From Phycicoccus sp. (GTDB lineage: Bacteria; Actinomycetota; Actinomycetes; Actinomycetales; Dermatophilaceae), in NCBI GenBank assembly GCA_039812375.1, contig JBDIAO010000003.1, positions 10,949 to 74,948 of the forward strand: a stretch of DNA of 64,000 nt, given 5' to 3'. Below, one piece after another: positions 5,936 to 27,330 of this stretch (its first letter is position 1; each line of letters opens with the position of its first letter). The notes beneath the pieces are model-generated. The model was not told the DNA's origin. It made no database searches and worked only from the letters and a program-made list of their open reading frames with translations. A program made the position numbers and the translations under genes.

Positions 5936-5958
5936 ACTGGAGCAGGCGCTCGGCCGGC

Positions 5959-9902: not shown

Positions 9903-9965
9903 GAGACGGACGGTAGCCCTCAGGAGGTGACGAAGGCGTGCTGAGAACTGCGGTAGCGTCGCACC

Positions 9966-11117: not shown

Positions 11118-11170
11118 CCGATCCCGAGCCGCTCGGCCCGAATCGGCCGGGGGGCTCCTACCCTGTCCTT

Positions 11171-12174: not shown

Positions 12175-12951
12175 TCAGCGACCCGTCCAGCGAGGAGCCC
12201 GTCCCTCGGCGAAGGCAGCCGACCCCTCCCGGGCATCCGCGGAGTCAACCAGAGCGTCGTATGCCGGGAAGACCCCCGAGCGCATCGTCGCGAAGTCCGC
12301 GGTGGCGTCATCGTGCAGCCCGCGCATGGCCTGTTTGACCGCAGCCACCGACAGGGGCGCCATCGACGCGATTCGCTCCGCGAGCTCGAGGCTGGCCGCC
12401 ATGAGCTGGTCGGGCGGGACGACTCGATTGACCAGACCCCATCGGGCCGCCTCCTGGGCATCGATGAGTCGACCGGTCAACAACATCTCCATGGCGACGG
12501 CATACGGGACCCGGCGGGGCAGCCGGATGAGCCCACCGGAGTCGGCGATGAGCCCGAGCGAGGCCTCGGTCAGGCCCATCCGGGCACCGTCGGCGGCGAC
12601 GATGAGGTCGGCAGCCAAGGCCAGCTCGAAGCCGCCACCGACAGCCATCCCGTTGACCGCCGCGATGACGGGCTTGTCGAGTTCGAGTTCGGTGAGGCCC
12701 GCGAACCCGCCCGGGCCGTGGTCCGCGTCCGGCGCCTCTCCGGCAGCAGCTGCTTTGAGGTCCCAGCCGGCACTGAAGAAGCGCTGACCAGCACCGGTGA
12801 CGATGCCGACCCGCAGGGCGGGGTCGTCCCGCAGTCGGGTGAAGGCGGCATACATCTCCCGGCTCGTCGCCACGTCGATGGCGTTGGCCTTGGGCCGGTC
12901 GAGAGTGACGACGAGGACCTCACCATGCACGTACGTCTGCACCTCAGACAT
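12175..12951 (-). CDS. enoyl-CoA hydratase / carnitinyl-CoA-dehydratase-like crotonase
   Basis: 258 aa from ATG 12951 (MSEVQTYVHGEVLVVTLDRPKANA). Crotonase blocks FFSAGWDLK and AAVNGMAVGGGFELALAADLIVA. 8-nt overlap with the upstream gene. Confidence 0.85.
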   Translation of the reverse strand: MSEVQTYVHGEVLVVTLDRPKANAIDVATSREMYAAFTRLRDDPALRVGIVTGAGQRFFSAGWDLKAAAAGEAPDADHGPGGFAGLTELELDKPVIAAVNGMAVGGGFELALAADLIVAADGARMGLTEASLGLIADSGGLIRLPRRVPYAVAMEMLLTGRLIDAQEAARWGLVNRVVPPDQLMAASLELAERIASMAPLSVAAVKQAMRGLHDDATADFATMRSGVFPAYDALVDSADAREGSAAFAEGRAPRWTGR

Positions 12952-15085
12952 GGACGGCTCCTCCTGGCTCGGCGATATCCGCCAACTCGACGACATCGCC
13001 GGACTCCACGATGAGTTCCGGCTCCCGGGCAGCGCTCACGGGGGCGGCGACGAGGACGACATCGACGGCGACGACCCCATGTCCATCCGGGAGGACCAGA
13101 ATCGGATTGACCTCGACCTCGGCCAGGTCCGGGGAGCGCTCCAGTCCGGAGGCGAGCGCCAGCACGGCGCCGACGAGCGCGTCGACGTCCCCGGCGGGCC
13201 GGCCGCGGTAGCCACGCAGCACCGGTGCCAGGCGCAGCTGGGACAAGGCGTCCCGCACGTCCGCACCGTGCAGTGATCCGACGAGGGTGACCACGTCGGA
13301 CTCCAGCTCGGTGGTCACTCCACCGGCACCGACGGTGACCACCGTGCCGTGCCCCTCGTCCTTGCGGACCCCGACGAGGATCTCGGCTACCCCGACCGGC
13401 GCCATCTCCTCGACGAGGACCTGCGGATGCAGGTGGGCCATGGCCCGCGCGGCGGAGGCCACCGCCTCCGGGGTGTACAGGTCGAGGGCCACGCCACCGA
13501 CGTCGGACTTGTGCAGCAGGGCAGCTGCCGTCTTGACGACGACGGGCAGCCGCATGCTCCCCGCGAGCTGCGCTGCATCCTCGATCGCGGCGACACCCCG
13601 CCGCGGGCTGGGGATCCCGGCAGCCGCCAGCCAGGCATAGCCGTCCGCGGTGGGCAAGCCGGCACCGGAGTGCTGAGTCGGTCGGTGGGCGGCCTTGGTT
13701 CCCCGGTCGAGGACGGCCCGTCGGCCCTGGGTGGCAGCGACGACGGTGCACACCGCCGCCAGTCCCTCCCTGATGCCTCGTAGCGGCGCCACCCCCTGCT
13801 CCAACAGCCGCGCCGCCGTGACCGGCGACAGACTCTCCCCGATCGAGGCGAGCACCGCCGAGGGGCCGGTGTGCGCCTGCGCGGCCGAGCACCAGGCCGA
13901 AAGGGTGGCCTCCCAGGCCGCGGGGTCGCAGCGGTCGGCCCGCGGCTCGTCGAGGACGAGGATCCGCAGCGCGGCATCGACCTGAGCGACGCCGTCGAAC
14001 AAGCGTCGTAGCGTGTCCTCCTGCCCCCAGGCGTACGTGTGGTAGTCGAGCGGGTTGTCCACGGTGACCCGGTCGCCGAGGACCTCGCCGATCCGGTCTC
14101 GATCTGCGACGCTGAGCTCGGGCATGGCGATCCCGGTGGCCTCCGCCACGTCGGCGACCAGGGCGGCTTCTCCGCCGCTGCAGCTCGCCGACACGATGCT
14201 CGCCTCGGGCAGCTCCGGCACGACGTGCGCCAGGACCAGCGCCTCGAGGAGCTGGGACACGTCGTCCACCTCGGCGAACCCGCACCTGCGCAGCACGGCC
14301 GCCGCCACCGCGCTGTCCCCGGCGAGCGAGCCGGTGTGAGTGGCATTGGCGCGCGCGCCCTGCCGGCTGCGCCCGGTCCGGAGCACGATGACCGGCTTGC
14401 CCGCTGCTGCCGCACGCTGCGCCACCGGTAGCAGTTCGGGCAGGGGCGGGACCTGCTCCATGTGCACCCCGACCGCACTCACGCGCGGGGAGTCGACCAT
14501 GGCGCCGATCACCTCGGCCAGGGTCGTGACCGCCTGGTTGCCCATCGAGAACACCGCAGCCACGGGCAGGCCCCGTTGCTGCATGGTCAGGTTGAGCGCG
14601 ATGTTGCCGCTCTGAGTCACAAACGCCACACCGGACCCCTCGACGCGTCCTCCACCCTGCTGGTCCGGCCACAGCGCAGCCCCGGTGACGTAGTCGATGA
14701 CTCCCATGCAGTTGGGGCCGATGACCGGCATCACGCCTGCCGCGACCCGCAGCCGCTGCTGACGGGCCCGGCCTAGCTCGCCGGTCTCCCCAAACCCCGA
14801 GGCGTGACAGACCGCACCGCCGCACCCCCGTGCCGACAGCTGCTCGACGACGTCGATGGTCGCCTCAGCCGCGACGCCGATGAACGCGGCGTCCGGCACC
14901 CCGGGCAGATCGGCGACACTGCGATATGCCTTCAGCCCGCCGACCTGCTCCCGGGTGGGGTGGACCGGCCACAGCTCACCGGCATACCCCAGGAGAGCGC
15001 ACTGCCTGATGACCCCCTCAGCCGCGGCCCCGCCGACCACCGCGATACTCCGGGGATCGAGCAGTCGGCCCAGAGAGGATGTCAT
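12944..15085 (-). CDS. ADP-forming (NDP-forming) acyl-CoA synthetase, fused alpha/beta type
   Basis: 713 aa. CoA-binding N-terminus SIAVVGGAAAEG...PVIGPNCMGVI, a ligase-CoA domain, and a C-terminal ATP-grasp PVVVKTAAALLHKSDVGGVALDL. Confidence 0.85.
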   Translation of the reverse strand: MTSSLGRLLDPRSIAVVGGAAAEGVIRQCALLGYAGELWPVHPTREQVGGLKAYRSVADLPGVPDAAFIGVAAEATIDVVEQLSARGCGGAVCHASGFGETGELGRARQQRLRVAAGVMPVIGPNCMGVIDYVTGAALWPDQQGGGRVEGSGVAFVTQSGNIALNLTMQQRGLPVAAVFSMGNQAVTTLAEVIGAMVDSPRVSAVGVHMEQVPPLPELLPVAQRAAAAGKPVIVLRTGRSRQGARANATHTGSLAGDSAVAAAVLRRCGFAEVDDVSQLLEALVLAHVVPELPEASIVSASCSGGEAALVADVAEATGIAMPELSVADRDRIGEVLGDRVTVDNPLDYHTYAWGQEDTLRRLFDGVAQVDAALRILVLDEPRADRCDPAAWEATLSAWCSAAQAHTGPSAVLASIGESLSPVTAARLLEQGVAPLRGIREGLAAVCTVVAATQGRRAVLDRGTKAAHRPTQHSGAGLPTADGYAWLAAAGIPSPRRGVAAIEDAAQLAGSMRLPVVVKTAAALLHKSDVGGVALDLYTPEAVASAARAMAHLHPQVLVEEMAPVGVAEILVGVRKDEGHGTVVTVGAGGVTTELESDVVTLVGSLHGADVRDALSQLRLAPVLRGYRGRPAGDVDALVGAVLALASGLERSPDLAEVEVNPILVLPDGHGVVAVDVVLVAAPVSAAREPELIVESGDVVELADIAEPGGAVHV

Positions 15086-16242
15086 GCCCCGAGCGGGCGC
15101 AGCATCGCCCTGGAGATGATGTGCCGCTGGATCTCGCTCGTGCCGTCCCAGATCCGGTCCACTCGGGCGTCACGCCACATCCGCTCCAGCGGCAGCTGCC
15201 CCATCAGGCCCATTCCGCCGAGGATCTGCACCGCCTTGTCGGTGACCCGGCCCAGGGTCTCGGAGGCGAAGAGCTTGGCCATGGCGATCTCAGAGTCGGT
15301 GACCGTTCCGTCGTCGATGTGCGCGGCGGCGCGCAGGGTGAGCAGTTCGGCGGCGTCGAGTTCGACGGCCATGTCGGCGAGCTGGAAGGACACTCCTTGG
15401 AATGCCCCGATCGGCTTCCCGAACTGCTTGCGGGTCGCCGCCCACTCGGTGGCGATCCGCAGCGCCCGCCGGCCTTTCCCTACGCTGGTCGCGGCGACCG
15501 CGAGCCGGGTGGCTCCCAGCCAGGTGCCCATGAGCTCGAACCCGCGGCCCTCCTCACCCAGGAGCTGCCATCCGGGGATCCGGCACGCCTCGAAGGTCAG
15601 GTCGCTTTGGTGGTAGCCGCGGTTGGACACGCAGTCGGTGTGGGTCAGTACGGACAGGCCGGGGGTGTCCAGGTCGACCAGGAATGCCGAGATCCGGGCC
15701 TTGGGCCCCTTAGTGGTCTCTTCGGTCCCGGTCGCCGCGAAGAGGATGACGAAGTCGGAGACGTCGGCGTGGCTGATGAAATGCTTGGTTCCGGTGATCA
15801 CCCAGTCGTCGCCGTCGCGCACGGCTCGGGTGCGCATGGAACGCACGTCGGAGCCGGCCTCCGGCTCGGTCATCGCCAGGCAGTCAACCTTCTCCCCACG
15901 GATCGTCGGCAGGAGGTACTCCTCGCGCTGGCGTCCGACACAGCCCTGGAGGATATTGCTGGGTCGGGTCACCAGCGACTGGAGGGCGAAGCTTGTGGCG
16001 CCGAGCTCACGCTCGACGAGGGTCATCGAGACGGCATCGAGACCGCCGCCGCCGAGCTCCTCGGGCATGTTCGCGGCATACAGTCCAGCCCGGATCGCCT
16101 TGCCCCGGATGCTGCTCGCGAGCTCGGTGGGCACGTCGCCGAGACGCTCGACCTCCTCCTCGTGCGGGATGAGTTCGGCCTCGACGAAACGTCGCACGGT
16201 CGCGACGATGGCACGCTGCTCTTCACTGAGTGAGAAGTCCAC
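15082..16242 (-). CDS. acyl-CoA dehydrogenase
   Basis: 386 aa from GTG 16242 (VDFSLSEEQRAIV), with AAGGA 8 nt upstream. Blocks CLAMTEPEAGSDV, QILGGMGLM and RIWDGTSEIQRHIISR. Confidence 0.9.
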   Translation of the reverse strand: MDFSLSEEQRAIVATVRRFVEAELIPHEEEVERLGDVPTELASSIRGKAIRAGLYAANMPEELGGGGLDAVSMTLVERELGATSFALQSLVTRPSNILQGCVGRQREEYLLPTIRGEKVDCLAMTEPEAGSDVRSMRTRAVRDGDDWVITGTKHFISHADVSDFVILFAATGTEETTKGPKARISAFLVDLDTPGLSVLTHTDCVSNRGYHQSDLTFEACRIPGWQLLGEEGRGFELMGTWLGATRLAVAATSVGKGRRALRIATEWAATRKQFGKPIGAFQGVSFQLADMAVELDAAELLTLRAAAHIDDGTVTDSEIAMAKLFASETLGRVTDKAVQILGGMGLMGQLPLERMWRDARVDRIWDGTSEIQRHIISRAMLRPLGA

Positions 16243-16255
16243 GACCGTGATCCTT

Positions 16256-17788
16256 TCACGCGGTGCTGACCGCGCGGATGGCCCGTCCGGCGGCGACCGG
16301 GGTGGGCAGCCCGGCGTGGGCTGAGACGATGGCCCGCAGCCGTTCCTGCAGGTCCGCGGGCATGGGCACGACCCCGCCACCGTTGAGGTCGACGTGCAGC
16401 AGCATCTGCTCACCGGTGGCGAGTAGGGCCCCGGTGTCCGCATTCGTCATGACATGCATGATATGAACGCGCTTGGCGTCGGCGCCGAGCACGTGCAGGG
16501 TGAGGGTGACCCGGTCACCCAGGCCGGCCTCACCGGTGTGCACGATGTGGGTCTCGACACTGAACAGGGAGTGGCCAGCCTCGCGGTAGGCCTCGTTGAC
16601 CCCGAGGTACCGGAAGAAGGCGTCGGCGTTGTCCCCGAAGGCGAGCAGGAAGCACGACTCGCTCATGTGGTCGTTGTAGTCGACCCAGGCGGTCGGCACG
16701 ATCGCCTGGTGCAACTGCAGCGGGGCCTCGATGACATCGGGGTCCCAGGGCCGTCCCGGCATCCCCTCGTATGGGGTGTGCACCCGTCCGTCCCCCGGTT
16801 CGGCTTCGGAGGAACCGGGCAACCATGCGGCGCACCCGAGGATGGCGCCGGCCTCGACCGCTGCTGCCGCATCCTCCGTGAGCACTAGGGACGTGGCGGA
16901 GTCCGTCGGGTCAGCGACGACCACGAGTGCGCCCAAGCTGGCGACGTCGACGAGCACCTGGTCCCAGTGCCGGTACTGCACGTCGTGTTCCTCACCGGCG
17001 TGCACGACGAGGCGGGCCGTCGCTGGCAGCGTCTCCTGCCACCGATGAGCGTGCACGAGCGGGACGACGGGGTCGTCGGCGCCCCAGAGCAGGAAGACCG
17101 GTGCCGTGAGGGCGGTCAGGTCAGGACAGTGCCACTGACTGAGGACGTCGAACTCCCGCTGCAACCCCAGTGCCGGGATCATCGAGCCTTGGGTGAACCG
17201 AGCCCGGGTCGCCTCGTCGACGACGGCCTGCGCGAAGCCGGGTATGCGGTGCACCGGACTGTGTGGACCGTAGGTCCACCAGCTCACCGGATCGTTCTCG
17301 GCCAGAGCGAGCCACTGGGCAGGAACGTCGAGACCGAGGTCGGTCACGGCGCAGGCCAGGTGCAGCGAGCGCACCGACTCTGGGCGTGTCGCAACGATCT
17401 GCGCGGCATACGGCCCGCCGCCGGAGATCCCACCTACCGAGGGCGTGCTGATCCCCAAGGTGTCGAGCAGCTCCCACACGTCTCCCGCGAAAGACTCGAT
17501 CGTTGCGCTGTCGTCGAAGACGGTGCCGCCGAGCCCGTTGCGCTCCACCCCGAGCAGGCGAACCCCCAGCCGGCGGCGCACCGTGGCGGTGAACTCGAGG
17601 AGCTCCAGAGCCCGCACACTGGTCCCGCCACCGGTGAAGATGACCAGGGGTATGCCGTCCGCCGGCCCGGTGTCGACATAGCGCAGGGTGCGACCACCGG
17701 AGGTGGTGTACTCGAACTCAGTCAGGGCGAGCCGGTCGAAGCGAGCCGGGACGTCGAGCGGCCCCGCCCGCAGCAGACGAGCGGTCAT
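16256..17788 (-). CDS. alpha/beta-hydrolase fused to a C-terminal hotdog (4HBT-type) thioesterase
   Basis: The N-terminal roughly 300 aa carry the nucleophile elbow GGISGGGPY and HAGEEHD near the catalytic His region. The C-terminal roughly 140 aa (WVDYNDHMSESCF...SVETHIVHTGEAGLGDRV...) are clearly paralogous to the stand-alone thioesterase at 26153..26575. Confidence 0.8.
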   Translation of the reverse strand: MTARLLRAGPLDVPARFDRLALTEFEYTTSGGRTLRYVDTGPADGIPLVIFTGGGTSVRALELLEFTATVRRRLGVRLLGVERNGLGGTVFDDSATIESFAGDVWELLDTLGISTPSVGGISGGGPYAAQIVATRPESVRSLHLACAVTDLGLDVPAQWLALAENDPVSWWTYGPHSPVHRIPGFAQAVVDEATRARFTQGSMIPALGLQREFDVLSQWHCPDLTALTAPVFLLWGADDPVVPLVHAHRWQETLPATARLVVHAGEEHDVQYRHWDQVLVDVASLGALVVVADPTDSATSLVLTEDAAAAVEAGAILGCAAWLPGSSEAEPGDGRVHTPYEGMPGRPWDPDVIEAPLQLHQAIVPTAWVDYNDHMSESCFLLAFGDNADAFFRYLGVNEAYREAGHSLFSVETHIVHTGEAGLGDRVTLTLHVLGADAKRVHIMHVMTNADTGALLATGEQMLLHVDLNGGGVVPMPADLQERLRAIVSAHAGLPTPVAAGRAIRAVSTA

Positions 17789-19617
17789 GCAGCCCCGTCC
17801 GTGCCGTCCGACTCGACCAGGCCCTCGGTCGCCTCGGGAACGGCGGCGTCGAAGCTCGGGGTCGAGGCGATCAGGGAGCGGGTGTAGGCGTGCTGCGGGT
17901 TGGCGAAGATGTCCTCCACCCCACCCATCTCGACAATTCGTCCCTTCTCCAGGATCGCCACCCGCTGGGCAATGTTGCGCACCAGCGCGATGTTGTGCGT
18001 GATGAACACCAGGGTCAGACCCAGCTCACTCTGCAGCCGGCGCAGCAGGCTGACCAACGAGGACTGCACCGAGACGTCGAGCGCGGAGGTGATTTCGTCA
18101 CAGATGAGCACCTCAGGATCCGTGGCCAGTGCCCGCGCGATCGCGACCCGCTGCCGCTCCCCACCGGAGAGCTGGTGCGGGTAGCGCCGTGCATAGTCGG
18201 GGCGCAACGAGGCCAATTCGAGGGCGTTCGCGACGACCTCGTCGGGATTGCTCGGCTTGCGACCTACGGCGGCGAGGGGCCCCAGGACGAGGTCGCTGAC
18301 CAGGCGACGGGGGTTGAGCGACTCGTAGGGGTTCTGGAAGATGTATTGCAGCTTCCGACGCTGCTCCTTGGTCCGTTTGAAACTGCTCGCCGCGATGACC
18401 TCACCGTCGAGTTGGATCTGGCCCTGGTAGTCCGGCATCAGTCCGGCGATGCATCGGGCCAGGGTCGTCTTGCCCGAGCCGGACTCGCCGAGCAGGGCCA
18501 GGCACTCGGCCTTGCTCGCATGCAGGGTCATGTCCTCGAGGATGATCTTCTTGCCGTAGCCGGCCTTGACGTTGCTGATCTGCAGGACCACGGGCGCATC
18601 CTCGCGGACCTGGCTCGCCGGACTGGCCACCACTGGGACCGGGACCGGCTCGCCGGCGTGCCAGCACTCGGCCATGTGGTCGTTCTCGGTGACCACCCGG
18701 GGTGGCTGCTCCGTGCGGCAGCGGTCGTCGGCCAGTGGGCAGCGCGGCGAGAAGGAGCACCCTTGCGGCCGGGCCAGTGGCGACGGGGCATGCCCTGGGA
18801 TGCCGACCATGGGTCGCTTGCCATCGAGGTCGGGGACGGCCAGCAGCAGCCGGGTGGTGTAGGGGTGCTGCGGGTTCCCAGTGACCTGCGACGTGGGCCC
18901 GACCTCGACGACCCGTCCGGAATAGAGCACCGCGACGGAGTCCGCGAGTTCGGCGACGACGGCCAGGTCATGGGTGATGTAGACGGCCGCGCAGTGGTAC
19001 GTGCGACACATGTCCTTGACGGTCTCCAGAACATGCTTCTGGGTGCTCACGTCCAGGCCGGTCGTCGGCTCGTCGAGGACGAGGACGCCCGGGCGTGAGG
19101 TGAAGGCCATCGCGATCGCCACTCGCTGTTGCTGTCCGCCGGAGAGCTGGTGCGGATACCGGGCGAGGAACTCGTCGGTGTCGGGCAGGGCCACTTCGCG
19201 CAGCACTTCCCGCACCCGCTCGAGCACGCTCGCATCGTCACCGCTGAGGCACTCGGCGAGCTGGGTGCGGATCCGCAGAGCGGGGTTGAGCGCAGAGGCC
19301 GGGGACTGCGGAATGTAGGCGATGTCTCGCCCGCGCAGGTCGCGGACCTCCCGGTTACTCAGCCGCGCCAGGTCGTGTCCACGGACGACGATATCCCCGG
19401 CGGCGAGCTCGGTGCCGGGCTTGCAGTAGCGCAGCAGCGCCAGCCCGAGCGTCGTCTTGCCCGACCCGGATTCGCCGACAAGGCCGAGGATCTCCCCTGG
19501 CTTGAGGGTGACCTCGATGTCGTCGACGATGAAGGCCATCGAGGGGACCCCGATGATCCGCATTCCCTCGACGGTGAGCGAGTTATCGATCGGGGGGGTG
19601 GTGTCCACGGTCGTCAT
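17785..19617 (-). CDS. ABC transporter ATP-binding protein, fused double ATPase (DppD/DppF-like)
   Basis: 610 aa from ATG 19617 (MTTVDTTPPIDN). Two cassettes: GESGSGKTT/LSGGQQQRV and GESGSGKTT/LSGGERQRV. Cys-rich oligopeptide-type C-terminal extension GCSFSPRCPLADDRC. Confidence 0.9.
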   Translation of the reverse strand: MTTVDTTPPIDNSLTVEGMRIIGVPSMAFIVDDIEVTLKPGEILGLVGESGSGKTTLGLALLRYCKPGTELAAGDIVVRGHDLARLSNREVRDLRGRDIAYIPQSPASALNPALRIRTQLAECLSGDDASVLERVREVLREVALPDTDEFLARYPHQLSGGQQQRVAIAMAFTSRPGVLVLDEPTTGLDVSTQKHVLETVKDMCRTYHCAAVYITHDLAVVAELADSVAVLYSGRVVEVGPTSQVTGNPQHPYTTRLLLAVPDLDGKRPMVGIPGHAPSPLARPQGCSFSPRCPLADDRCRTEQPPRVVTENDHMAECWHAGEPVPVPVVASPASQVREDAPVVLQISNVKAGYGKKIILEDMTLHASKAECLALLGESGSGKTTLARCIAGLMPDYQGQIQLDGEVIAASSFKRTKEQRRKLQYIFQNPYESLNPRRLVSDLVLGPLAAVGRKPSNPDEVVANALELASLRPDYARRYPHQLSGGERQRVAIARALATDPEVLICDEITSALDVSVQSSLVSLLRRLQSELGLTLVFITHNIALVRNIAQRVAILEKGRIVEMGGVEDIFANPQHAYTRSLIASTPSFDAAVPEATEGLVESDGTDGAA

Positions 19618-19619
19618 GA

Positions 19620-20507
19620 CTACTCCTCCACTCCGACGCCGGCCCCTGCTGAGGCTCGCGCCAGACCCTCGGTGACGAGGTTGGTGCCGACGGTGAGGAT
19701 CGCGATCGCCACGACGGGCAGGACGACCGGCCAGGGTTGGACGGTCAGCGCGATCCGGTTCTCGTTGATCATCAGGCCCCAGTCCGCGGTCGGCGGCTGC
19801 ATGCCCATGCCGAGGAAGCTCAGACCGGCGATGAGACCGATGGAGTAGGTCAGCCGCAGACCGAGCTCGACGGCGAGGGTCCCGGTGACGTTGGGGACGA
19901 CCTCGGTGAGTAGGATCCGCCACCTCGGGACCCCGACTGCCTCGGCGGAGCGGACGAAGTCGCGCTCGACGACCGGGACTGCTGCACCCCGGATCACCCG
20001 GGCGACCCGGGGCAGGTGCCCGAAGGCGACCATGACGACGAGCAGCCACGCCTTGGGTCCCACGATGGACAGGAAGAGCAGGGCCAGGACGATCTGCGGG
20101 AAGGCGAGCAGGGTGTCACCGGCCCGCATGAGGACCTCGTCGACAAAGCCGTGGCGGTATGCCGCGATGACCCCGACCGCAGCGCCCACACCGACCCCGA
20201 TGAGGGTGGCCAGCAGCGAGAGGAACAGGAGCAGGAAGCCTCCGTGCAGGAACCGGGACCACACGTCGCGGCCGATGGCGTCGGTGCCGAAGAGCATGCC
20301 CGGTCCCCGTGGGGAGAACGGGGCCCCGACAAACTCGGTCGGCGTGTGCGGGGAAACGAAGGGGCCGATGACGGCGATGGCGACGATGAGGGCGGTGAGG
20401 ATGACGCCGATCACCGTGCTCTTGGTCCGCAGGGCCCGGCTGAACAGAGTGGAGCCCTTGGTCGCCGGCTTGCCGGAGGCGACCGCCCCCTTGGTCGGTG
20501 CCGTCAT
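19620..20507 (-). CDS. ABC transporter permease (DppC/OppC-like)
   Basis: 295-aa polytopic protein with N-terminal anchor VIGVILTALIVAIAVIGPF and the GTDAIGRDVWSR block typical of DppC-type permeases. Confidence 0.9.
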   Translation of the reverse strand: MTAPTKGAVASGKPATKGSTLFSRALRTKSTVIGVILTALIVAIAVIGPFVSPHTPTEFVGAPFSPRGPGMLFGTDAIGRDVWSRFLHGGFLLLFLSLLATLIGVGVGAAVGVIAAYRHGFVDEVLMRAGDTLLAFPQIVLALLFLSIVGPKAWLLVVMVAFGHLPRVARVIRGAAVPVVERDFVRSAEAVGVPRWRILLTEVVPNVTGTLAVELGLRLTYSIGLIAGLSFLGMGMQPPTADWGLMINENRIALTVQPWPVVLPVVAIAILTVGTNLVTEGLARASAGAGVGVEE

Positions 20508-21454
20508 TGGTTCGCCGTCCTCACTCGCGGGTTGGCCATCAAGGTAATCACGTCGGCGAGCAGGTTGACGACGACGTAGAAGGCCGCGATGAGCAGGACC
20601 AGCGCCTGGATCAGCGGCATGTCCCGGTTGGTCACCGCGTCGGTCAGCGCGAACCCGACCCCGGGGTAGCGGAAGAGGTACTCGACGAGGACCACGCCAC
20701 CGACGAGCCAGGCGAGCTGGAGGGCGATCACCTGGGCGACCGGGCCGATAGCGTTGGGAATCGCGTGCCGGATGATGACCAGCCGTTCGGCGATTCCCTT
20801 GAGCCGCGCCTGGCGGATGTACTCGCTCTCGAGGACCTCGAGGACCGTGGCCCGCATGATCCGGGTGATGTAGGGCGAGACGGCCAGGACCAGGGTCAGC
20901 ACCGGTAAGACGAGCTGCTGCGGCTGCAGGAGAACCGACCCGCCGTTGTCGACATAGACCGCGGGAAAGATGTGGAACACCCCGGTGGACAGCAGCAGGA
21001 CGAGCAGGATGCCGACGACGAACTCGGGCAGTGCCGCGAAGATGAGCGTGACCACCGAGGTGACCCGGTCGGACATCTGGTCCTTGGCCATCGCCGTGAG
21101 TGTGCCCAGGGCGATCGACAACGGGATGGCGATGATCGCCGTGAGGATCATCAGGATCCCGGTGTTGGCGGCCGCCGACCCGAGGATCTCGCTCACCGGC
21201 CGTTGCGCGGCCAGCGAGTTCCCCAGGTCGAACCGGAACAGGTTGCCCAGCCAGTGCACATACTGAATGTGCAGCGGCTGGTCGAGTCCCAGCTGCTCCC
21301 GCAGGGCGGCCAGCCGCTCTGGGGTGGCCTCCTTGCCGAGGATGGCCCTGGCCGCGTCCCCGGGCAGCGCCTGGGTCGCCAGGAACACGATGATCGAGAC
21401 GACGGCCAGTGTGATGATGCCGAACGCACCGCGCCGGATGAGCATCCTACCCAT
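20504..21454 (-). CDS. ABC transporter permease (DppB/OppB-like)
   Basis: 316 aa. N-terminus MLIRRGAFGIITLAVVSIIVFLATQALPGDAA is typical of DppB-type permeases. 4-nt overlap with the next permease gene. Confidence 0.9.
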   Translation of the reverse strand: MGRMLIRRGAFGIITLAVVSIIVFLATQALPGDAARAILGKEATPERLAALREQLGLDQPLHIQYVHWLGNLFRFDLGNSLAAQRPVSEILGSAAANTGILMILTAIIAIPLSIALGTLTAMAKDQMSDRVTSVVTLIFAALPEFVVGILLVLLLSTGVFHIFPAVYVDNGGSVLLQPQQLVLPVLTLVLAVSPYITRIMRATVLEVLESEYIRQARLKGIAERLVIIRHAIPNAIGPVAQVIALQLAWLVGGVVLVEYLFRYPGVGFALTDAVTNRDMPLIQALVLLIAAFYVVVNLLADVITLMANPRVRTANQ

Positions 21455-21501
21455 GGCGGGTCTCCTTCCCCTGGCGTGAACCAGTGACCGTCATGACTGG
21501 G

Positions 21502-23070
21502 TCACTTGGTGACCCAGACTTGGGCGAAGTTGTAGGACGTCAGCGGGATGCCGCTCTTGTCCGGGACCAGCCCGTGCACCTTGGTGCTGTAGGCGTCGAT
21601 GTTGTTCGGGAAGCCCCAGATGATGTAGCCGCCGCTGTCGTACTCGATCTTCTGGGCTTGCTGGATCAGGTCGCAGCGCTTGGTCTCGTCGATCGTCGCG
21701 GTCGCCTCGTTGACCAGCTTGGTCCACTCGGGGTCGTTCCAGTGGGTCTCGTTGTAAGGCGAGGTCGTGAAGCCGGAGTTGGCGGCCTGGGGCAGGAAGT
21801 CCCGGGTGAACCAGAAGTCCTGGGAGAAGGTCCACTTGAGGTAGTCGTCGCCGTAGAACACGCCTGGGTCGACCTTGTTGAGCTTGATGGTGACCCCGGC
21901 CTGCTTGGCCTGCTGCTCCAGGACGGTCGCCGCCTCGACCAGGCCCGCGGCTGCTGGGGAGGTGACGAGCTCGACGCTGAGGTTGGGCTGGCCGGCTTCG
22001 GCGAGCAGCTTCTTGGCTTGAGCGATGTCCTGCTCACGCTGCGGCAGGCTCTTGTTGAAGCACGGGTCGAAGGGGGCATAGAGGTCGTTGCCGACCTGTC
22101 CGTGGCCGCCGAGCACCTGCTCGATCATCTGCTTGCGGTTGACGATGAGCCGCATCGCCTGGCGCACCTTGACGTTGTCGAAGGGTGCCTGATCCACCCG
22201 CATGGTGAACGGGATCCACGACCCGGTCTCGGACTCGAGCACCTTGAGCGCTGGGTTGGCCTCGACCACCTTGATCTGGCCCAGCGGCAGCTGGTCGATG
22301 GCGTCGACCTGTCCGCCGAGGAGGGCGTTGACCCGGGCGGTGTCGTCCGGGAAGTCGATCAGGGTCAGTTTGGCCAGGTGCGGCTGCCCCTTCTCGAAGA
22401 AGTTCGGGTTCTTCACCATGACACTCTGCTGGCCGGGAGTGAAGGACTCGAGCATGAATGCGCCGGCACCGACCGGCTTGGCCGGGTCGTAGTCCTTGGG
22501 GACGATCCCGGTGGCGTACTGGGCTACCGAGTCGGGGAAGATCGCGAACGGGCTCTTGAAGTGGAAGATCGCGGTCGTCGCGTCCGGGGTCTCGATGTTG
22601 TCCCGGTCCATCGTGGACAGTGCCGTTGCCGCGGACTTCGGGTTGGCCGGGTCGGTGATCCGTTTGAAGGTGGCGGCGACATCCTCGGAGGTCAGTGGCT
22701 TGCCGTCACTGAACTTCAGGTCCGGCTTGAGCTTGACGGTCCAGGCGGTGCCGTCCTCGTTGGGCTCGATCGATTCGGCGAGCATCATCTCGCGCTTGTG
22801 ATTGGTGTCATAAGTCGCCAGCGTCGCGTAGAGCGCGATGACTCGGGCCTCGTCCGGGTGGGTGACCGGGCTGTGCGCGTCGAGGCTGTCCTTGGCGGAG
22901 CCGCCGACGATGCCGGCAGTGAGGGCGCCGCCGTCGACGGGGGTTCCCGACTCGGCGCCGGAGGTTCCGCCTCCGCCGGAGGAGCCGCCGCCGCAGGCGG
23001 CGAGGGCGAGCGCGGCGACCGGGGCCAGGGCGAGCAGACGAATCGCCCGGGAGCGGGTGCGGTGGGACAT
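21502..23070 (-). CDS. ABC transporter substrate-binding lipoprotein, family 5 (peptide/nickel/opine type)
   Basis: Lipoprotein signal with lipobox LALAACGGG followed by a Gly/Ser linker. About 520 aa with a family-5 SBP-like block (DLKFSDGKPLTSEDV). Confidence 0.9.
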   Translation of the reverse strand: MSHRTRSRAIRLLALAPVAALALAACGGGSSGGGGTSGAESGTPVDGGALTAGIVGGSAKDSLDAHSPVTHPDEARVIALYATLATYDTNHKREMMLAESIEPNEDGTAWTVKLKPDLKFSDGKPLTSEDVAATFKRITDPANPKSAATALSTMDRDNIETPDATTAIFHFKSPFAIFPDSVAQYATGIVPKDYDPAKPVGAGAFMLESFTPGQQSVMVKNPNFFEKGQPHLAKLTLIDFPDDTARVNALLGGQVDAIDQLPLGQIKVVEANPALKVLESETGSWIPFTMRVDQAPFDNVKVRQAMRLIVNRKQMIEQVLGGHGQVGNDLYAPFDPCFNKSLPQREQDIAQAKKLLAEAGQPNLSVELVTSPAAAGLVEAATVLEQQAKQAGVTIKLNKVDPGVFYGDDYLKWTFSQDFWFTRDFLPQAANSGFTTSPYNETHWNDPEWTKLVNEATATIDETKRCDLIQQAQKIEYDSGGYIIWGFPNNIDAYSTKVHGLVPDKSGIPLTSYNFAQVWVTK

Positions 23071-23103
23071 GGGTTTCTCCTCCGTGGGACCGGCTGGGCC
23101 GGG

Positions 23104-24159
23104 TCAGTGGGCTCGGGACGGGTGGTGGGGGTCGGACGGGCTGGTTCGGGATGTGGCGAGGCGGGCGTCGTGCTCACGCACCGTCACGCCGGCGCCATAC
23201 GGGACTGAGCGCAGGCCGTCGAGGACGGCGACCAGGCAGGCGTCCCGGATCCGCTCGAGTTCACCGACACCCACCCCGCCCGCTTGGCTGTCGGACTGCT
23301 CGGCGATCCGGTCCATCAGGGCCTCGTCGAGCTCGGGAACCTCGGTCAGATGGGTCCACGGCCACTGCAGCGTCGGGCCGAACTGACCCATGAAGTGCCG
23401 CATGCCGCCGTCACCGCCGGCGATCCGGTAGGTGAGCATGGTGCCCATCGACGCCCAGCGCAGTCCGGCGCCGTAGCGGATCGCGTCGTCGATCTCCTCG
23501 GTTGTGGCTACCCCGTCGGCCACCAGCCACAACGCTTCGCGCCACAGGGCCTCGAGCAGCCGGTCAGCGATGAAGCCCTCGACCTCGCGGCGGACGACCA
23601 GGGGTTTCATCCCGATCCCCGTGAAGGCCGCGTATGCCGCCTCGACGGCCGCCGGGTTGGTCGCCTCACCCCCGCATATCTCGACCAGGGGGAGCAGGTA
23701 GACCGGGTTGAACGGGTGCGCGACGAGGAAGCGGTCGGGATGGGCCATGTCCGCCTGGAGCAGGCTGGGCAGTAGACCCGAGGTGGAGGAGCAGATGAGG
23801 GTGTGCGGTTCGGCGGCAGCGTCGACCTGGGCCAGTACCGATTGCTTGAGTTCGAGGCGCTCGGGCACGCTCTCGTGGAAGATGTCCGCCCCGTCGGCGG
23901 CCTCCTCGATCGTGGCGACGACCTGCCAGCGCCCCGGTGTGGGCAGAGTGTCGCCGTGCAGCGACTGCAGGGCCGTGGTGGCGTTGGCGATGAGGCGGGA
24001 GAGGACCGCCTCGGCGCCCGGAGCCGGATCGAAGACGGCCACGTCGACTCCGGCGAGAACCCAGCGGGCCGCCCAGCCACCACCGATGACCCCGCCACCG
24101 GCCAGACCGGCCCGGCGGACCACGGCCGCGGGCTGGTGACCGTTCGTGGTCTCAGCCAT
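23104..24159 (-). CDS. L-carnitine-dehydrogenase-like 3-hydroxyacyl-CoA-dehydrogenase-family enzyme
   Basis: 351 aa from ATG 24159 (MAETTNG). Rossmann GGGVIGGGWAARW, blocks ESVPERLELK and HPFNPVYLLPLVE. The C-terminal domain IDDAIRYGAGLRWA...GGMRHFM resembles carnitine dehydrogenases. 8-nt overlap with the BKACE gene. Confidence 0.8.
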   Translation of the reverse strand: MAETTNGHQPAAVVRRAGLAGGGVIGGGWAARWVLAGVDVAVFDPAPGAEAVLSRLIANATTALQSLHGDTLPTPGRWQVVATIEEAADGADIFHESVPERLELKQSVLAQVDAAAEPHTLICSSTSGLLPSLLQADMAHPDRFLVAHPFNPVYLLPLVEICGGEATNPAAVEAAYAAFTGIGMKPLVVRREVEGFIADRLLEALWREALWLVADGVATTEEIDDAIRYGAGLRWASMGTMLTYRIAGGDGGMRHFMGQFGPTLQWPWTHLTEVPELDEALMDRIAEQSDSQAGGVGVGELERIRDACLVAVLDGLRSVPYGAGVTVREHDARLATSRTSPSDPHHPSRAH

Positions 24160-25057
24160 GCCGGACCAGGCCCACCTGTTCACGGACCTCCTGCGGGCCC
24201 TGGACCCGGACGTTCATCGCCTCCAGGAGAGTGACCGCGCGCTGAACGAGGCCGCCGTTGGTCGCGAGCACACCGCGGGAGAGGTAGAGGTTGTCTTCCA
24301 GGCCGACCCGGACGTTGCCGCCGTGCAGGACCGCCATCGCGGCATAGGGCAGCTGGTGGCGCCCCACCGAGAAGGCCGACCAGGTGACCCCCGGCGGGAG
24401 GCCGTGGACCATGGCCTGGAAGGAGAGCGGGTCGTTGGGCACGCCATAGGGGATGCCCATGCACAGCTGCACCATGAGCGGCCCGGTCAACGTCCCGTCG
24501 GTGACGAGTTCGCGGGTGAGCACCAGGTCGCCGGTGTCGAAGCACTCGACCTCGGGGCAGACCCCCAGGGCAACCATCTGGCGCGCCATCTCCCGGACCA
24601 TGCCCGGGGTGTTGACCATGATGTAATCCCCGCCGGCGGCGAAGTTCACCGTGCCCGCATCCAGCGTGCAGATCTCTGGGAGGAGTTCGCTGACATGCGC
24701 CATCCGCTCGGTGGCACCGGCCATGTCCGTGCCGGCCGCGTCGAAGGGCAGCGGCTGCTCGGCGCCCCCGAGGACGATCTCGCCGCCCATGCCGGTGGTG
24801 AGGTTGATGATGACATCGGTCGAGGAGGCCCGGATGCGCTCGACAGCCTCACGGTAATAGGCGACCTCGCGGCTCCCCTTGCCGGTGCTCGGCTCGCGGA
24901 CGTGGATGTGGACCACGGCTGCACCGGCCTGAGCGGCCTCGATGGCCGAGTTGGCGATCTGCTCAGGAGTGATCGGCGCGTGATGTTCCTTGCCGCCGAG
25001 ATCCCCGGCGCCGGTCAAGGCGCAGGTGATGAAGGCCTGGGTTGCGAACGCTGCCAC
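24152..25057 (-). CDS. BKACE-family beta-keto acid cleavage enzyme (DUF849; 3-keto-5-aminohexanoate/dehydrocarnitine cleavage type)
   Basis: 301 aa. Blocks ITCALTGAG, VVHIHVREP, PEVECFDTGD and VRVGLEDNLYLSRG are characteristic of the DUF849 TIM-barrel family. GTG start. Confidence 0.9.
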   Translation of the reverse strand: MAAFATQAFITCALTGAGDLGGKEHHAPITPEQIANSAIEAAQAGAAVVHIHVREPSTGKGSREVAYYREAVERIRASSTDVIINLTTGMGGEIVLGGAEQPLPFDAAGTDMAGATERMAHVSELLPEICTLDAGTVNFAAGGDYIMVNTPGMVREMARQMVALGVCPEVECFDTGDLVLTRELVTDGTLTGPLMVQLCMGIPYGVPNDPLSFQAMVHGLPPGVTWSAFSVGRHQLPYAAMAVLHGGNVRVGLEDNLYLSRGVLATNGGLVQRAVTLLEAMNVRVQGPQEVREQVGLVRHG

Positions 25058-25141
25058 TGGACGGTGCCCCTTCTGCGGTGGAGGGATATGTGGTGCTGTT
25101 CACACCATTGCACGAGGGCGCCGAGACTGTCAGCGCACGAA

Positions 25142-25174
25142 GCCGAAAACGCAATCACGATGCCGAAACGCAAT
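25142..25174. promoter_or_regulatory. two direct repeats GCCGAAA(A)CGCAAT carrying the operator half-site
   Basis: GCCGAAAACGCAAT at 25142-25155 and GCCGAAACGCAAT at 25162-25174. They lie in the 256-nt divergent intergenic region. Confidence 0.35.
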
Positions 25175-25230
25175 GCTGGCGATGTCAGCTGCCACGGCGT
25201 AGTGCGCTGGTCCTTACGCATCGGGTCGGC

Positions 25231-25247
25231 ATTGCGCATTGTGCAAT
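25231..25247. promoter_or_regulatory. palindromic operator candidate ATTGCGCA-T-TGTGCAAT in the iclR/BKACE divergent region
   Basis: Read directly. The two 8-nt arms are reverse complements with 1 mismatch. The same half-site ATTGCAC recurs at 25107-25113, and CGCAAT recurs in the two direct repeats at 25142-25174. Confidence 0.45.
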
Positions 25248-25313
25248 GGCTGCTGCTATCGTGCGGTGAGCATAGAAACGACTCCGGACGGTCGTCAAGG
25301 GGTGAGCGGATAC

Positions 25314-26156
25314 ATGGCCGGATCGACGGGGGCTCCGCGGCGCAGGCTGGTCCAGTCCGTCGAGCGGGCCATCGCCCTCCTCGAAGCCGTCGCCGACGGC
25401 GATCCCGAAGGGGAGACGGTCACAGATCTCGCGGCAACCTGTGGGCTGCAACGGGCCACCGCGTGGCGTCTGCTGGCCACCTTGGAGGCCCATGGGCTGC
25501 TTCGCTCCCACGGCGAGGTCCATCGCTACCAGCTCGGGGTCTCGATGATCCGGCTCGCCTCCTCCGGGGGGCTGCTCGGGGTGCGCCGGCACGCCGAGGA
25601 GGTGCTCCGCCGGCTCAGCGACAGCACCGGGGAGACGGCGGACCTCGCACTGCCCCGCCCGGCCGGGCTGACCTACATCGCCGAGGCGGCACCGCAGCGG
25701 GTGCTCACCGCGAGCTGGCTCGGCCGGACCATCCCCTTGCACGCCACCTCCTCGGGCAAGGCCCTGCTCGCCTGGCTCGAGCCCGCCGAAGTCGACGGGC
25801 TCGTCGGGGACCGGCTCCCGGCATACACGGACACGACGATCACGACCGGCGCGGATCTGGCTGCCGAGCTCGCCCGGATCCGGACCGCGGGCTTCGCCGT
25901 ATGCCGCGGGGAGCTCGAACCGACCCTCAACGGCGTGTCTGCACCGATCCTCGACGGACGCGACCGTCCGTTCGCGGTCGTGAGCATCTGGGGGCCTCGA
26001 TCCAGAATCCCGGAGACCCGGTTCCCCGAGCTGGGCGTCCTGGTCCAGGCCGCCGCCGCCGAAATCGGCACCACGGAGAGCCAGGCCACCGCAAGCCAGA
26101 CCACCGCAAGCCAGGCCACCGCAAGCCAAGCACCCCCCGGAGAGGATCCTCGATGA
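25314..26156 (+). CDS. IclR-family transcriptional regulator
   Basis: 280 aa from ATG 25314. N-terminal wHTH SVERAIALLEAVA...VTDLAATCGLQRATAWRLLATLE. Effector domain with ADLALP and SSGKALLAW. C-terminal low-complexity SQATASQTTASQATASQ tail. Confidence 0.9.
   Translation: MAGSTGAPRRRLVQSVERAIALLEAVADGDPEGETVTDLAATCGLQRATAWRLLATLEAHGLLRSHGEVHRYQLGVSMIRLASSGGLLGVRRHAEEVLRRLSDSTGETADLALPRPAGLTYIAEAAPQRVLTASWLGRTIPLHATSSGKALLAWLEPAEVDGLVGDRLPAYTDTTITTGADLAAELARIRTAGFAVCRGELEPTLNGVSAPILDGRDRPFAVVSIWGPRSRIPETRFPELGVLVQAAAAEIGTTESQATASQTTASQATASQAPPGEDPR
26079..26130 (+). repeat. in-frame 15-nt tandem repeat (about 3.4 copies) in the IclR C-terminal tail
   Basis: AGCCAGGCCACCGCA / AGCCAGACCACCGCA / AGCCAGGCCACCGCA / AGCCAAG, encoding SQATA-SQTTA-SQATA-SQ. 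Confidence 0.9.
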
Positions 26157-26575
26157 CGGCAACCCACGAACCCTTCGCCCAGTTCGCCACGACGGTGCAC
26201 GAGGACTGGGTGGACTACAACGGCCACATGAACGACTCCTTCTACGGCGTCGTGTGCGGCCAGGCCAACGAGGTCTTCCTGGAGCATCTCGGCCTGAGCG
26301 CGAGCTACCGAGAGCGCACCGGCGCCGCCGTCTACACCGTCGAAGCCCACCTGTACTTCCGCAAGGAGGCCCGCGCAGGTGAGCCGATCGCCGCCTCGTC
26401 GGTGGTCGAGAGCTTCGATGCCAAGCGCCTCTGGGTGGCCACGACCCTGCTCGACGAGGGCGGTACCGAGATCCTGCGCGCCCGATACCTCTACCTGCAC
26501 GTCGGCAAGGACGGTGTGGTCCCCTTCCCGGCCGATCGGGTCGCCGCGCTCGAGGCCGCAACGCAGCAGTCCTGA
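26153..26575 (+). CDS. hotdog-fold acyl-CoA thioesterase (betainyl-/carnitinyl-CoA thioesterase-like)
   Basis: 140 aa from ATG 26153 (ATGA overlap with the iclR stop). WVDYNGHMNDSFY...TVEAHLYFRKEARAGEP, 4HBT type. This is only the terminal part of the 809-aa ORF 24146..26575. Confidence 0.8.
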   Translation: MTATHEPFAQFATTVHEDWVDYNGHMNDSFYGVVCGQANEVFLEHLGLSASYRERTGAAVYTVEAHLYFRKEARAGEPIAASSVVESFDAKRLWVATTLLDEGGTEILRARYLYLHVGKDGVVPFPADRVAALEAATQQS

Positions 26576-26631: not shown

Positions 26632-27330
26632 ATGGTGCACACCACGGAAGTGCAGGTCCCCACGACCGGCGGCGCGATGCCGGCCACCGTGCTCTCCCCT
26701 GGCGCCGAGCCGGCCGCGGGCATCGTCGTGTGCCAGGAAATCTTCGGGGTGACCGGCTACATCCGCCGGTGGGCGCAGCGCCTCGCCGAGGCCGGGTATG
26801 CCGTCCTGACACCGGAGTTCTATTGGCGGCTGCCGCAGCCGGGGCCGGTCGAGGGTGCCGGAGCACTCGAGCAGGGGGTGGAGCTCATGCAGCAGTTCGA
26901 CTGGGAGCTCGGCGTGGCGGACGGGGCTGCGGCCGTGCGGTGGCTGCGGGCCGAGCTCGGGACCGGCGGGCGGGTGGGGCTCGTCGGGTTCTGTTTCGGT
27001 GGAGGGCTGGCCTTCAACATCGCGGCGCTCGAGCCGGTGCAGACCTTGGTGTCGTTCTATGGCTCGGCGCTGCCCGGACTTGTGGCCCTGGCCCCCCGGG
27101 TGCGGTGCGCCCAGCAGCACCACTGGGGCCTGGCCGACGCCTATGTCGACGCGGACACCGTGGCCCGGATCGAGCGCGCGGTCGCCGGCCCGGACACCGA
27201 GTTCTGGACCTATCCCGGCGCCGACCACGCCTTCGACAACGAGGACTTCGTCAACGCCGACCCCGGCGCCTCGGCGTTGGCCCGGGAACGCACCGGGACC
27301 TTCCTGGCCCGAACCCTCCCGGCGACCTGA
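26632..27330 (+). CDS. dienelactone hydrolase family protein
   Basis: 232 aa. GIVVCQEIFGV, nucleophile motif GLVGFCFGG, C-terminal YPGADHAF. Confidence 0.85.
   Translation: MVHTTEVQVPTTGGAMPATVLSPGAEPAAGIVVCQEIFGVTGYIRRWAQRLAEAGYAVLTPEFYWRLPQPGPVEGAGALEQGVELMQQFDWELGVADGAAAVRWLRAELGTGGRVGLVGFCFGGGLAFNIAALEPVQTLVSFYGSALPGLVALAPRVRCAQQHHWGLADAYVDADTVARIERAVAGPDTEFWTYPGADHAFDNEDFVNADPGASALARERTGTFLARTLPAT

Follow-up and report, generated by a model that had tools for sequence, protein, structure and literature searches.

A predicted operon for the uptake and catabolism of gamma-butyrobetaine and L-carnitine in the actinobacterium Phycicoccus

Introduction

Which compound is taken up and degraded by the products of a ten-gene unit found in the genome of Phycicoccus sp.? 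The DNA analysed here, called the window, is the whole 64-kb stretch lying at positions 10,949 to 74,948 of contig JBDIAO010000003.1 (assembly GCA_039812375.1), and not the operon alone; its G+C content is ~70%. In this window, ten minus-strand genes extend from 25057 to 12175, divergent from a gene for an IclR-family regulator and a thioesterase gene coupled to it. An earlier reading of the sequence (the original prediction) had proposed that these genes combine a route from gamma-butyrobetaine to carnitine with one from carnitine to glycine betaine and acetoacetate. As three of the parts were held to be atypical, the substrate was suggested to be possibly a different one, and the whole to be a catabolic system undescribed in actinobacteria.

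We conclude that the locus is probably an IclR-controlled operon for the uptake and catabolism of gamma-butyrobetaine and L-carnitine, with an enzyme core orthologous to the bco-cdh cluster of Sinorhizobium and Rhizobium. A pathway characterised in alphaproteobacteria would thereby be extended to high-GC Gram-positive bacteria, a point of interest when one estimates which members of soil and wastewater communities turn over carnitine and butyrobetaine. The assignment is also of use for annotation, the genes being now named 'acetate--CoA ligase', '3-keto-5-aminohexanoate cleavage protein' or 'peptide ABC transporter'.

Results

A conserved ten-gene unit

All ten reading frames were clean: with the start codons implied by the original prediction, no internal stop is present between 25057 and 12175 on the minus strand. 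The first gene, encoding an enzyme of the BKACE family, overlaps the carnitine dehydrogenase (CDH) gene by 8 nt; 33 nt then separate the latter from the solute-binding protein (SBP) gene, 47 nt the SBP gene from the first permease gene, and the two permease genes overlap by 4 nt. Further downstream, 2 nt lie between the second permease gene and the ATPase gene, which overlaps the 'hydrolase' gene by 4 nt; 13 nt precede the acyl-CoA dehydrogenase (ACAD) gene, and overlaps of 4 and 8 nt join ACAD to synthetase and synthetase to hydratase. On the plus strand, the IclR and thioesterase (TE2) genes share an ATGA overlap. This is exactly the layout originally described, with one addition, that the 'hydrolase' proved to be a fusion of two domains. 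No terminator-like site was found on the minus strand inside the ten-gene unit in a site scan, and every family assignment of the twelve genes is backed by matches to Pfam and NCBIfam profiles.

Gene neighbourhoods were scanned in 185,579 species genomes. Since an independent metagenomic contig (L088) repeats the gene order of the window, at 59-86% amino-acid identity, the order of the ten genes is not due to chance, and the unit is real and conserved. Over 40 loci, belonging to Actinomycetota, Sphingomonadales and Rhizobium, show parts of the arrangement, and the pairing of BKACE with CDH is present in more than 40 related loci. The closest relative, a metagenome-assembled genome of Tetrasphaera (L029), has a shorter version, in which IclR-TE2 is divergent from BKACE, a CDH-thioesterase fusion encoded by a single open reading frame (8966-10552), ACAD, synthetase and hydratase, in this order; it lacks the hydrolase and this importer.

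Carnitine dehydrogenase and BKACE

The dehydrogenase gene (23104-24159, minus strand) encodes a 351-residue protein of the 3-hydroxyacyl-CoA dehydrogenase type that resembles L-carnitine dehydrogenase, without the usual C-terminal thioesterase domain. A generic 3-hydroxyacyl-CoA dehydrogenase had been the alternative to consider. Among NCBIfam models, carnitine 3-dehydrogenase ranks first (473 bits) and L-carnitine dehydrogenase second (381 bits), the third-ranked model reaching 213 bits, which favours a carnitine dehydrogenase. The protein is 58% identical to the 'carnitine 3-dehydrogenase' of the Rhizobium cluster described below.

The carnitine 3-dehydrogenase model, NF005716, has an equivalog cut-off of 592 bits and a length of 495 positions, which reflects the thioesterase at the C-terminus of the rhizobial enzyme. 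On this model the dehydrogenase of the window spans positions 4-338, and the hotdog domain of the hydrolase gene spans positions 341-493; as encoded, that is as separate proteins, they score 473 and 159 bits respectively. Rejoined in silico, the two (which are not one polypeptide in the window) yielded 642.9 bits over a single stretch, 4-493 of 495, above the cut-off of 592. The natural fusion of Tetrasphaera L029 scores 638 bits.

The BKACE gene (24152-25057, minus strand, GTG start, 301 residues, 309 bits on the Pfam BKACE model) is predicted to encode a 3-dehydrocarnitine:acetyl-CoA cleavage enzyme. Its product does not reach the cut-off of any of the four non-carnitine equivalogs, namely Kce (NF052387, 233.9 bits for a cut-off of 382), 3,5-dioxohexanoate transferase (189/430), 3-oxoadipate:acetyl-CoA acetyltransferase (163/350) and the KAL-CLE fusion (168/725). 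The pattern of scores on these equivalogs is alike in the BKACE of the window and in that of the Rhizobium carnitine cluster; the two are 55% identical, and identity to the L029 and L088 proteins is 85%. The HxH and GLEDN motifs, which we take to be metal-ligand motifs, are retained in alignment with Kce, and the Glu of the Kce TGAE motif, to which we assume a role in that enzyme, is Gly here. In the ASMC classification of Bastard et al., the carnitine group of BKACEs (G5) divides into two genomic contexts that outline the two carnitine pathways.

The enzymes leading from butyrobetaine to carnitine

The last three genes of the unit would provide carnitine from butyrobetaine. The ACAD gene (15082-16242, minus strand, GTG start, 386 residues, four ACAD domains) is BcoC-like and encodes a predicted butyrobetainyl-CoA dehydrogenase, 64% identical to the ACAD of the Rhizobium cluster and 85% identical to those of L029 and L088. 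A match to the CaiA model of NCBIfam is detectable, at 174 bits. The motif IWDGTSEIQ (residues 364-372) is invariant across the ACAD orthologues of these clusters, Rhizobium included, and its Asp presumably stands at the place of the catalytic Glu (YEG motif) of medium-chain ACADs.

The synthetase gene (12944-15085, minus strand) encodes a fused NDP(ADP)-forming acyl-CoA synthetase of 713 residues, BcoAB-like, with CoA_binding_2, Succ_CoA_lig and ATP-grasp_5 domains. Over 98% of its length, it shares 45% identity with the product of the Rhizobium gene lying between ACAD and hydratase. A tblastn search against plasmids found homologues on 278 plasmid records, 141 of them from Rhizobium. On contig L088, whose remaining genes are 59-86% identical, an AMP-forming ligase (13612-15645, ACAS_N and AMP-binding domains) is encoded at the position of this synthetase, as though the enzyme of the activation step had been replaced there by a non-orthologous one.

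For the CaiD-like enoyl-CoA hydratase (12175-12951, minus strand, 258 residues), a predicted crotonobetainyl-CoA hydratase, the best NCBIfam model is indeed that of crotonobetainyl-CoA hydratase (CaiD), with 332 bits. The 'carnitinyl-CoA dehydratase' of Rhizobium obtains a close score on the same model, 308 bits, and is 51% identical to the hydratase of the window.

Taken with the carnitine dehydrogenase models and the likeness to the Rhizobium cluster, the CaiD match supports the chemistry first proposed for the combined route. From gene content, orthology and synteny we infer its substrates and steps as follows. The family-5 binding lipoprotein, two permeases and double ATPase would import the quaternary amine. 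Butyrobetaine would be converted into butyrobetainyl-CoA by the ADP-forming synthetase, then into crotonobetainyl-CoA by ACAD and into L-carnitinyl-CoA by the CaiD-like hydratase, from which the hotdog domain fused to the hydrolase would release L-carnitine. The NAD-dependent dehydrogenase would oxidise L-carnitine to 3-dehydrocarnitine, BKACE would turn 3-dehydrocarnitine and acetyl-CoA into acetoacetate and betainyl-CoA, and the IclR-linked thioesterase TE2 would finally hydrolyse betainyl-CoA to glycine betaine.

Two thioesterases and a split bifunctional enzyme

The 'hydrolase' gene encodes a fusion of an alpha/beta-hydrolase (residues 1 to ~335) with a 4HBT_2 hotdog thioesterase (residues ~353-506), and therefore the locus encodes two hotdog thioesterases. 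The first, TE_C (16256-16732, minus strand), is the domain of the fusion; it matches the carnitine 3-dehydrogenase model at positions 341-493 only, and is 45% identical to the thioesterase domain of the Rhizobium cluster. The second, TE2 (26153-26575, plus strand), is the one coupled to IclR, and likewise matches only the thioesterase part of that model. In a neighbour-joining tree of hotdog domains, four clades were obtained (ACAD-adjoining, IclR-adjoining, proteobacterial CDH-fused, and Arthrobacter). TE_C belongs to the clade that always adjoins ACAD, and in Tetrasphaera L029 this domain is the one fused to CDH. TE2 falls in a separate clade, always found beside the IclR gene (in the window, L088, L029 and L073). 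The bifunctional dehydrogenase/thioesterase is split at its domain boundary in the window, the thioesterase half being now the C-terminal domain of the hydrolase. The two thioesterase clades match the number of thioester hydrolyses in the route, also two, and we infer that TE_C, the predicted L-carnitinyl-CoA thioesterase, may act on carnitinyl-CoA, and TE2, the predicted betainyl-CoA thioesterase, on betainyl-CoA.

The five genes from SBP to the alpha/beta-hydrolase, in the window as in L088, sit exactly between the halves of the single CDH-thioesterase gene of L029. They look like an insertion, and one could imagine that importer and hydrolase form an unrelated peptide-uptake cassette that entered a carnitine operon. 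We regard this as very improbable: the importer family is linked to CDH and BKACE in many independent arrangements among Actinomycetota, a family-5 importer accompanies the rhizobial cluster too, and translational coupling is seen on both sides of the cassette.

Comparison with known carnitine systems

The closest known counterpart is found on plasmid pR132505 of R. leguminosarum WSM1325. According to its annotation, a GlxA-family regulator gene is divergent there from genes for BKACE, 'carnitine 3-dehydrogenase', ACAD, an 'acetate--CoA ligase family protein' and 'carnitinyl-CoA dehydratase', and the cluster continues with an SBP (529 residues), two permeases, an ATP-binding protein of 543 residues, a CocE/NonD hydrolase and, on the opposite strand, an alpha/beta hydrolase. 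The five core enzyme families are the same as in the window, with 45-64% identity and their relative order kept. The bco-cdh cluster of Sinorhizobium meliloti, Rhizobium and strain HK4 comprises the BcoAB synthetase, the BcoC dehydrogenase, the BcoD hydratase, a bifunctional CDH/thioesterase and BKACE. Bazire et al. (2019) reportedly described five enzymes catalysing the seven steps from butyrobetaine to glycine betaine. For the rhizobial cluster and the window alike, the predicted route takes seven steps to convert butyrobetaine into glycine betaine and acetoacetate. In S. meliloti, the literature describes BcoAB as producing butyrobetainyl-CoA from butyrobetaine, ATP and CoA, and SM2011_c01638 as a bifunctional enzyme that oxidises carnitine and hydrolyses betainyl-CoA.

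Each of the three parts that had been considered atypical occurs in the rhizobial cluster as well. It has the same fused ADP-forming synthetase, with S. meliloti BcoAB as a precedent. It has the same type of importer, made of a family-5-type SBP, two permeases and a double ATPase; with Prb, moreover, an Opp-like system that imports a betaine is on record. The extra alpha/beta-hydrolase, finally, has counterparts in the esterases adjoining the rhizobial importer (CocE/NonD and HSL-type, placed after it) and in hocS of the Pseudomonas aeruginosa carnitine operon. To speak of an undescribed system was therefore too strong, and the locus is better viewed as an actinobacterial member of a described one.

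The differences lie elsewhere. Unlike in the rhizobial cluster, dehydrogenase and thioesterase are separate proteins in the window; the partner to which the thioesterase is fused, an alpha/beta-hydrolase, is without a homologue in the rhizobial locus; the window also encodes another thioesterase paralogue; the regulator is of the IclR family instead of the GlxA/AraC type; and the host is a high-GC actinobacterium, with an SBP only 30% identical to that of rhizobia. The comparison thus displays a re-wiring of the pathway, in which a bifunctional enzyme is split, a new fusion joins hydrolase and thioesterase, another thioesterase is added and IclR would act as the switch.

Two other systems share part of this gene content. 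The carnitine operon of P. aeruginosa, caiX-cdhCAB-hocS, has CdhR as regulator; hocS encodes an acylcarnitine hydrolase, and CaiX works with the core transporter CbcWV. Like the window, it combines CDH, BKACE and a thioesterase-type step to glycine betaine with a binding-protein gene, a hydrolase gene within the operon and a divergent regulator. It differs by the absence of the butyrobetaine-to-carnitine module, and by its CaiX/CbcWV import and CdhR regulator in place of a family-5 SBP and IclR. We take CaiX/CbcWV to be a betaine-type system, and CdhR to be of the AraC/GlxA type. The caiTABCDE operon of Escherichia coli serves anaerobic carnitine respiration and is reductive, with the CaiT antiporter, the CaiB CoA-transferase and the AMP-forming ligase CaiC. 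It shares with the window a CaiD-like hydratase and a CaiA-like ACAD acting on crotonobetainyl- and butyrobetainyl-CoA, but has neither CDH nor BKACE; conversely, no member of the CaiT, CaiB and CaiC families was detected among the twelve genes with Pfam and NCBIfam.

The importer

Import would be ensured by four genes of the minus strand. The SBP (21502-23070, 522 residues) is a family-5 lipoprotein, with the lipobox LAAC and 267 bits on the Pfam model SBP_bac_5. Two permeases follow, one of the DppB type (20504-21454, BPD_transp_1 and BPD_transp_1_N domains, 81% identical in L088) and one of the DppC type (19620-20507, BPD_transp_1 and OppC_N domains, 85% identical in L088), and then a fused double ATPase of 610 residues, similar to DppD and DppF (17785-19617, two ABC_tran and two oligo_HPY domains). 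The ATPase of the Rhizobium cluster is of the same fused type (543 residues, 41% identical), and the permeases are 41% and 32% identical to those of that cluster. The SBP itself is 30% identical over 500 residues to its Rhizobium counterpart, with which it shares its best family-5 model, and 64-76% identical to the SBPs of related actinobacterial clusters. The closest solved structures either have no assigned ligand or are binders of opines, nickel or peptides. In S. meliloti, Prb is reported to be an Opp-like ABC importer for proline betaine (Alloing et al. 2006). Likened by description only, it is, as the importer of the window would be, a peptide-type ABC system carrying a quaternary ammonium compound, the substrate being a different one. 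As a precedent, Prb speaks against equating 'family 5' with 'peptide'.

Points against a carnitine substrate

Several observations weigh against the proposal that butyrobetaine and carnitine are the substrates. None of the enzymes, taken as separate proteins, reaches an NCBIfam equivalog cut-off: the dehydrogenase alone is below both of its own (473/592 and 381/414), and the hydratase, at 332 bits, is below the cut-off of 500 of the crotonobetainyl-CoA hydratase model. The SBP is far under the NCBIfam specificity cut-offs of DppA (75/1005), OppA (78/947) and NikA (97/393), as well as those of GsiB (117/594), the staphylopine protein CntA (49/800) and Opp5A_nikA (152/600). A PDB sequence search, database names and an AlphaFold2 (AF2) model compared by Foldseek returned for the hydrolase only generic esterase or 'haloperoxidase' relatives, from which no substrate could be read. 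No catabolic gene for glycine betaine or acetoacetate was seen in the window, where translations were inspected and ten flanking open reading frames were searched with Pfam; the fate of both products is therefore not encoded there. The equation of the Rhizobium cluster with the S. meliloti pathway is presumptive, being based on papers that cite its description. We know of no characterised actinobacterial member of the pathway, and a literature search on carnitine dehydrogenase in actinobacteria found nothing usable.

Could the likeness to carnitine enzymes then hold at the level of families only? The substrate would in that case be another 4-substituted butyrate or 3-hydroxy acid, such as 4-hydroxybutyrate or 3,4-dihydroxybutyrate, a guanidino or amino acid, or an opine-like conjugate. 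Besides the scores below cut-off, this would agree with an importer of the peptide/opine/nickel type, with the fact that BKACEs accept many beta-keto acids, and with the best named model of the synthetase, 4-hydroxybutyrate--CoA ligase (238 bits for a cut-off of 1300). We nevertheless consider it improbable. The rejoined dehydrogenase and thioesterase pass the carnitine 3-dehydrogenase cut-off, the five core enzymes are both 45-64% identical to and syntenic with those of a carnitine-annotated cluster, and the neighbourhoods of relatives are rich in quaternary-amine genes. Moreover, the hydratase has CaiD as its best model, which is not so for the hydratase of the type B clusters presented below, where no carnitine module is found.

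The alpha/beta-hydrolase and the ester question

Butyrobetaine and carnitine being the most probable substrates, the place of the hydrolase has to be considered. The domain (16784-17788, minus strand, residues 1-335 of the fusion, Abhydrolase_1) is of the serine carboxylesterase type. Across 31 hydrolase homologues, S122 (in GISGGG), D239 and H268 are invariant, as are many Trp and Tyr residues. The AF2 model has a predicted local distance difference test value (pLDDT) of 86, and its top Foldseek matches are generic esterases and 'haloperoxidases', with template modelling (TM) scores of ~0.55-0.6.

Orthologues of the hydrolase (at least 44% identity) adjoin this importer family in nearly all actinobacterial loci with enough flanking sequence, and they do so in three settings. 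In Arthrobacter clusters, hydrolase and importer accompany only BKACE-CDH-TE, and the regulator is a TetR protein whose C-terminal domain is of the BetI type. In a second setting they stand with a generic short-chain beta-oxidation set, the hydratase and dehydrogenase of which are not carnitine-like. The third, found in the window, has both the carnitine and the butyrobetaine modules.

Our guess is that the hydrolase is, most simply, an esterase freeing carnitine (or butyrobetaine) from an ester, for instance a short-chain O-acylcarnitine. This leads to an extension of the proposed route, in which the enzymes are the same and the feed is an esterified quaternary amine, taken up by the importer and cleaved by the hydrolase. 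An intact Ser-Asp-His triad in a carboxylesterase-type fold would suit such a role, as would the large pocket of a family-5 SBP, fit for a bulkier ligand; the three settings are what one would expect if the ester were cleaved to yield a short acid and carnitine (or butyrobetaine); and both the CocE/NonD and HSL-type esterases that follow the importer in rhizobial clusters and the acylcarnitine hydrolase gene hocS in the P. aeruginosa operon point the same way. Yet the hydrolase has no sequence or structure match to an enzyme of known acylcarnitine specificity, and could equally cleave another ester, an amide or a thioester. Tetrasphaera L029, moreover, has the enzyme core but neither the hydrolase nor this importer, and the more distant homologues of Streptomyces and Pseudomonas (at most 41% identity) show no linkage to carnitine genes. 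On balance we hold an esterified feed to be a plausible variant, somewhat on the doubtful side.

A broader proposal, which is more tentative still and which we think rather unlikely, is that hydrolase and family-5 importer form a conserved front end for esterified quaternary amines, which actinobacteria would combine with one or another downstream module: that for carnitine alone, that for short-chain beta-oxidation alone, or, as in the window, those for butyrobetaine and carnitine together. Were it true, the hydrolase would represent a new family of acylcarnitine-type esterases, and the SBP a new ligand class of family 5. This esterase/importer module is the only part of the locus that could yield something new.

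Clusters of the second setting, which we call type B, are exemplified by L005 (Arthrobacter sp. SDTb3-6, 500-10930), with ~12 similar ones (L008, L014, L016, L019, L023-L026, L028, L032). They encode an importer 67-71% identical to that of the window, followed by an SDR-family protein, an ADP-forming synthetase, an ACAD, a generic crotonase, a true 3-hydroxybutyryl-CoA dehydrogenase and a hydrolase of the same family. BKACE, hotdog thioesterase and thiolase are absent from them. In Sphingomonadales, a hydrolase 35% identical to that of the window lies between the CDH-TE and TE-ACAD-synthetase-hydratase genes, and an NCS1 permease stands in place of the ABC system. In Novosphingobium (L001, 3695-6012), an ACAD gene with the motif IYDGPTEVH and then an APH-type kinase gene are located directly upstream of BKACE; we presume that the pair resembles 4-hydroxyacyl-CoA enzymes of the ACAD10/11 type. 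Distant homologues of the hydrolase were also considered as a clue to function and dropped: their neighbours in Streptomyces and Pseudomonas (methylmalonyl-CoA mutase, a PLD-type enzyme, sensor kinases) were unrelated.

Regulation

The IclR-family regulator (25314-26156, plus strand, 280 residues) has BhcR, PcaR and IclR as best NCBIfam matches, each under its cut-off. Its orthologues in L029 and L088 are 70-71% identical and also divergently placed. A consensus scan detected a promoter-like element on the minus strand (25269-25298), consisting of a -35 hexamer TTGACG (25298-25293) and a -10 hexamer TATGCT (25274-25269) separated by 18 nt, and both hexamers align with counterparts in L088 and L029. 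Directly downstream of the -10 lies an imperfect palindrome, TTGCGCATTGTGCAA (25232-25246), a candidate IclR operator that occurs once in the 64-kb window. The palindrome, too, aligns with its counterparts in L088 and L029, the block GCACGATAGyAGCAGCCwTTGCAyAATGyGCAATG being conserved in the window and in both of these loci. In the simplest model, IclR would be a repressor binding the candidate palindrome just downstream of the -10.

Between candidate operator and BKACE start, a leader of ~170-200 nt (25058-25231) is kept in L088 and absent in L029. Within this leader, a stretch of 13 nt is directly repeated (25136-25148 and 25156-25168), and an inverted repeat of 15 nt is also present. A riboswitch in the leader region (25058-25262) was considered and rejected: no Rfam match was obtained, and the predicted fold was no better than that of shuffled sequences (z = 0.64).

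Surrounding genes

On contig L088, the flanks of the operon (1-956 and 15747-21578) encode an MttB-family methyltransferase, a second IclR regulator, an aldehyde dehydrogenase and a GMC oxidoreductase (BetB/BetA-like), and another ABC system; judged by family, these genes support a quaternary-amine theme. The operon of the window has no such neighbourhood around it.

Beyond the end of the operon, upstream of the hydratase gene, a patatin gene and a lipid kinase gene are found. They are part of a number of lipid-related genes spread over the window (9966-12115, 32242-36699, 40992-42512 and 60870-62075), for which no link to the operon is shown. Family matches were obtained for a YegS-type lipid kinase, a patatin-like phospholipase and a WS/DGAT acyltransferase, and a 1486-residue patatin-like membrane protein and an acyltransferase were recognised from their translation only. 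Two long open reading frames with strong coding signal on the plus strand, at 39798-40892 and 42525-44642, gave no Pfam match at E <= 1e-5.

On the other side, a dienelactone-hydrolase-family gene (26632-27330, plus strand) starts ~56 nt after TE2 on the same strand; in L088 no such gene is beside TE2. It is directly followed, at 27354-29563 on the plus strand, by LutA/LutB-like lactate-utilisation genes (CCG domains; LUD and 4Fe-4S domains) in a lutABC-like arrangement.

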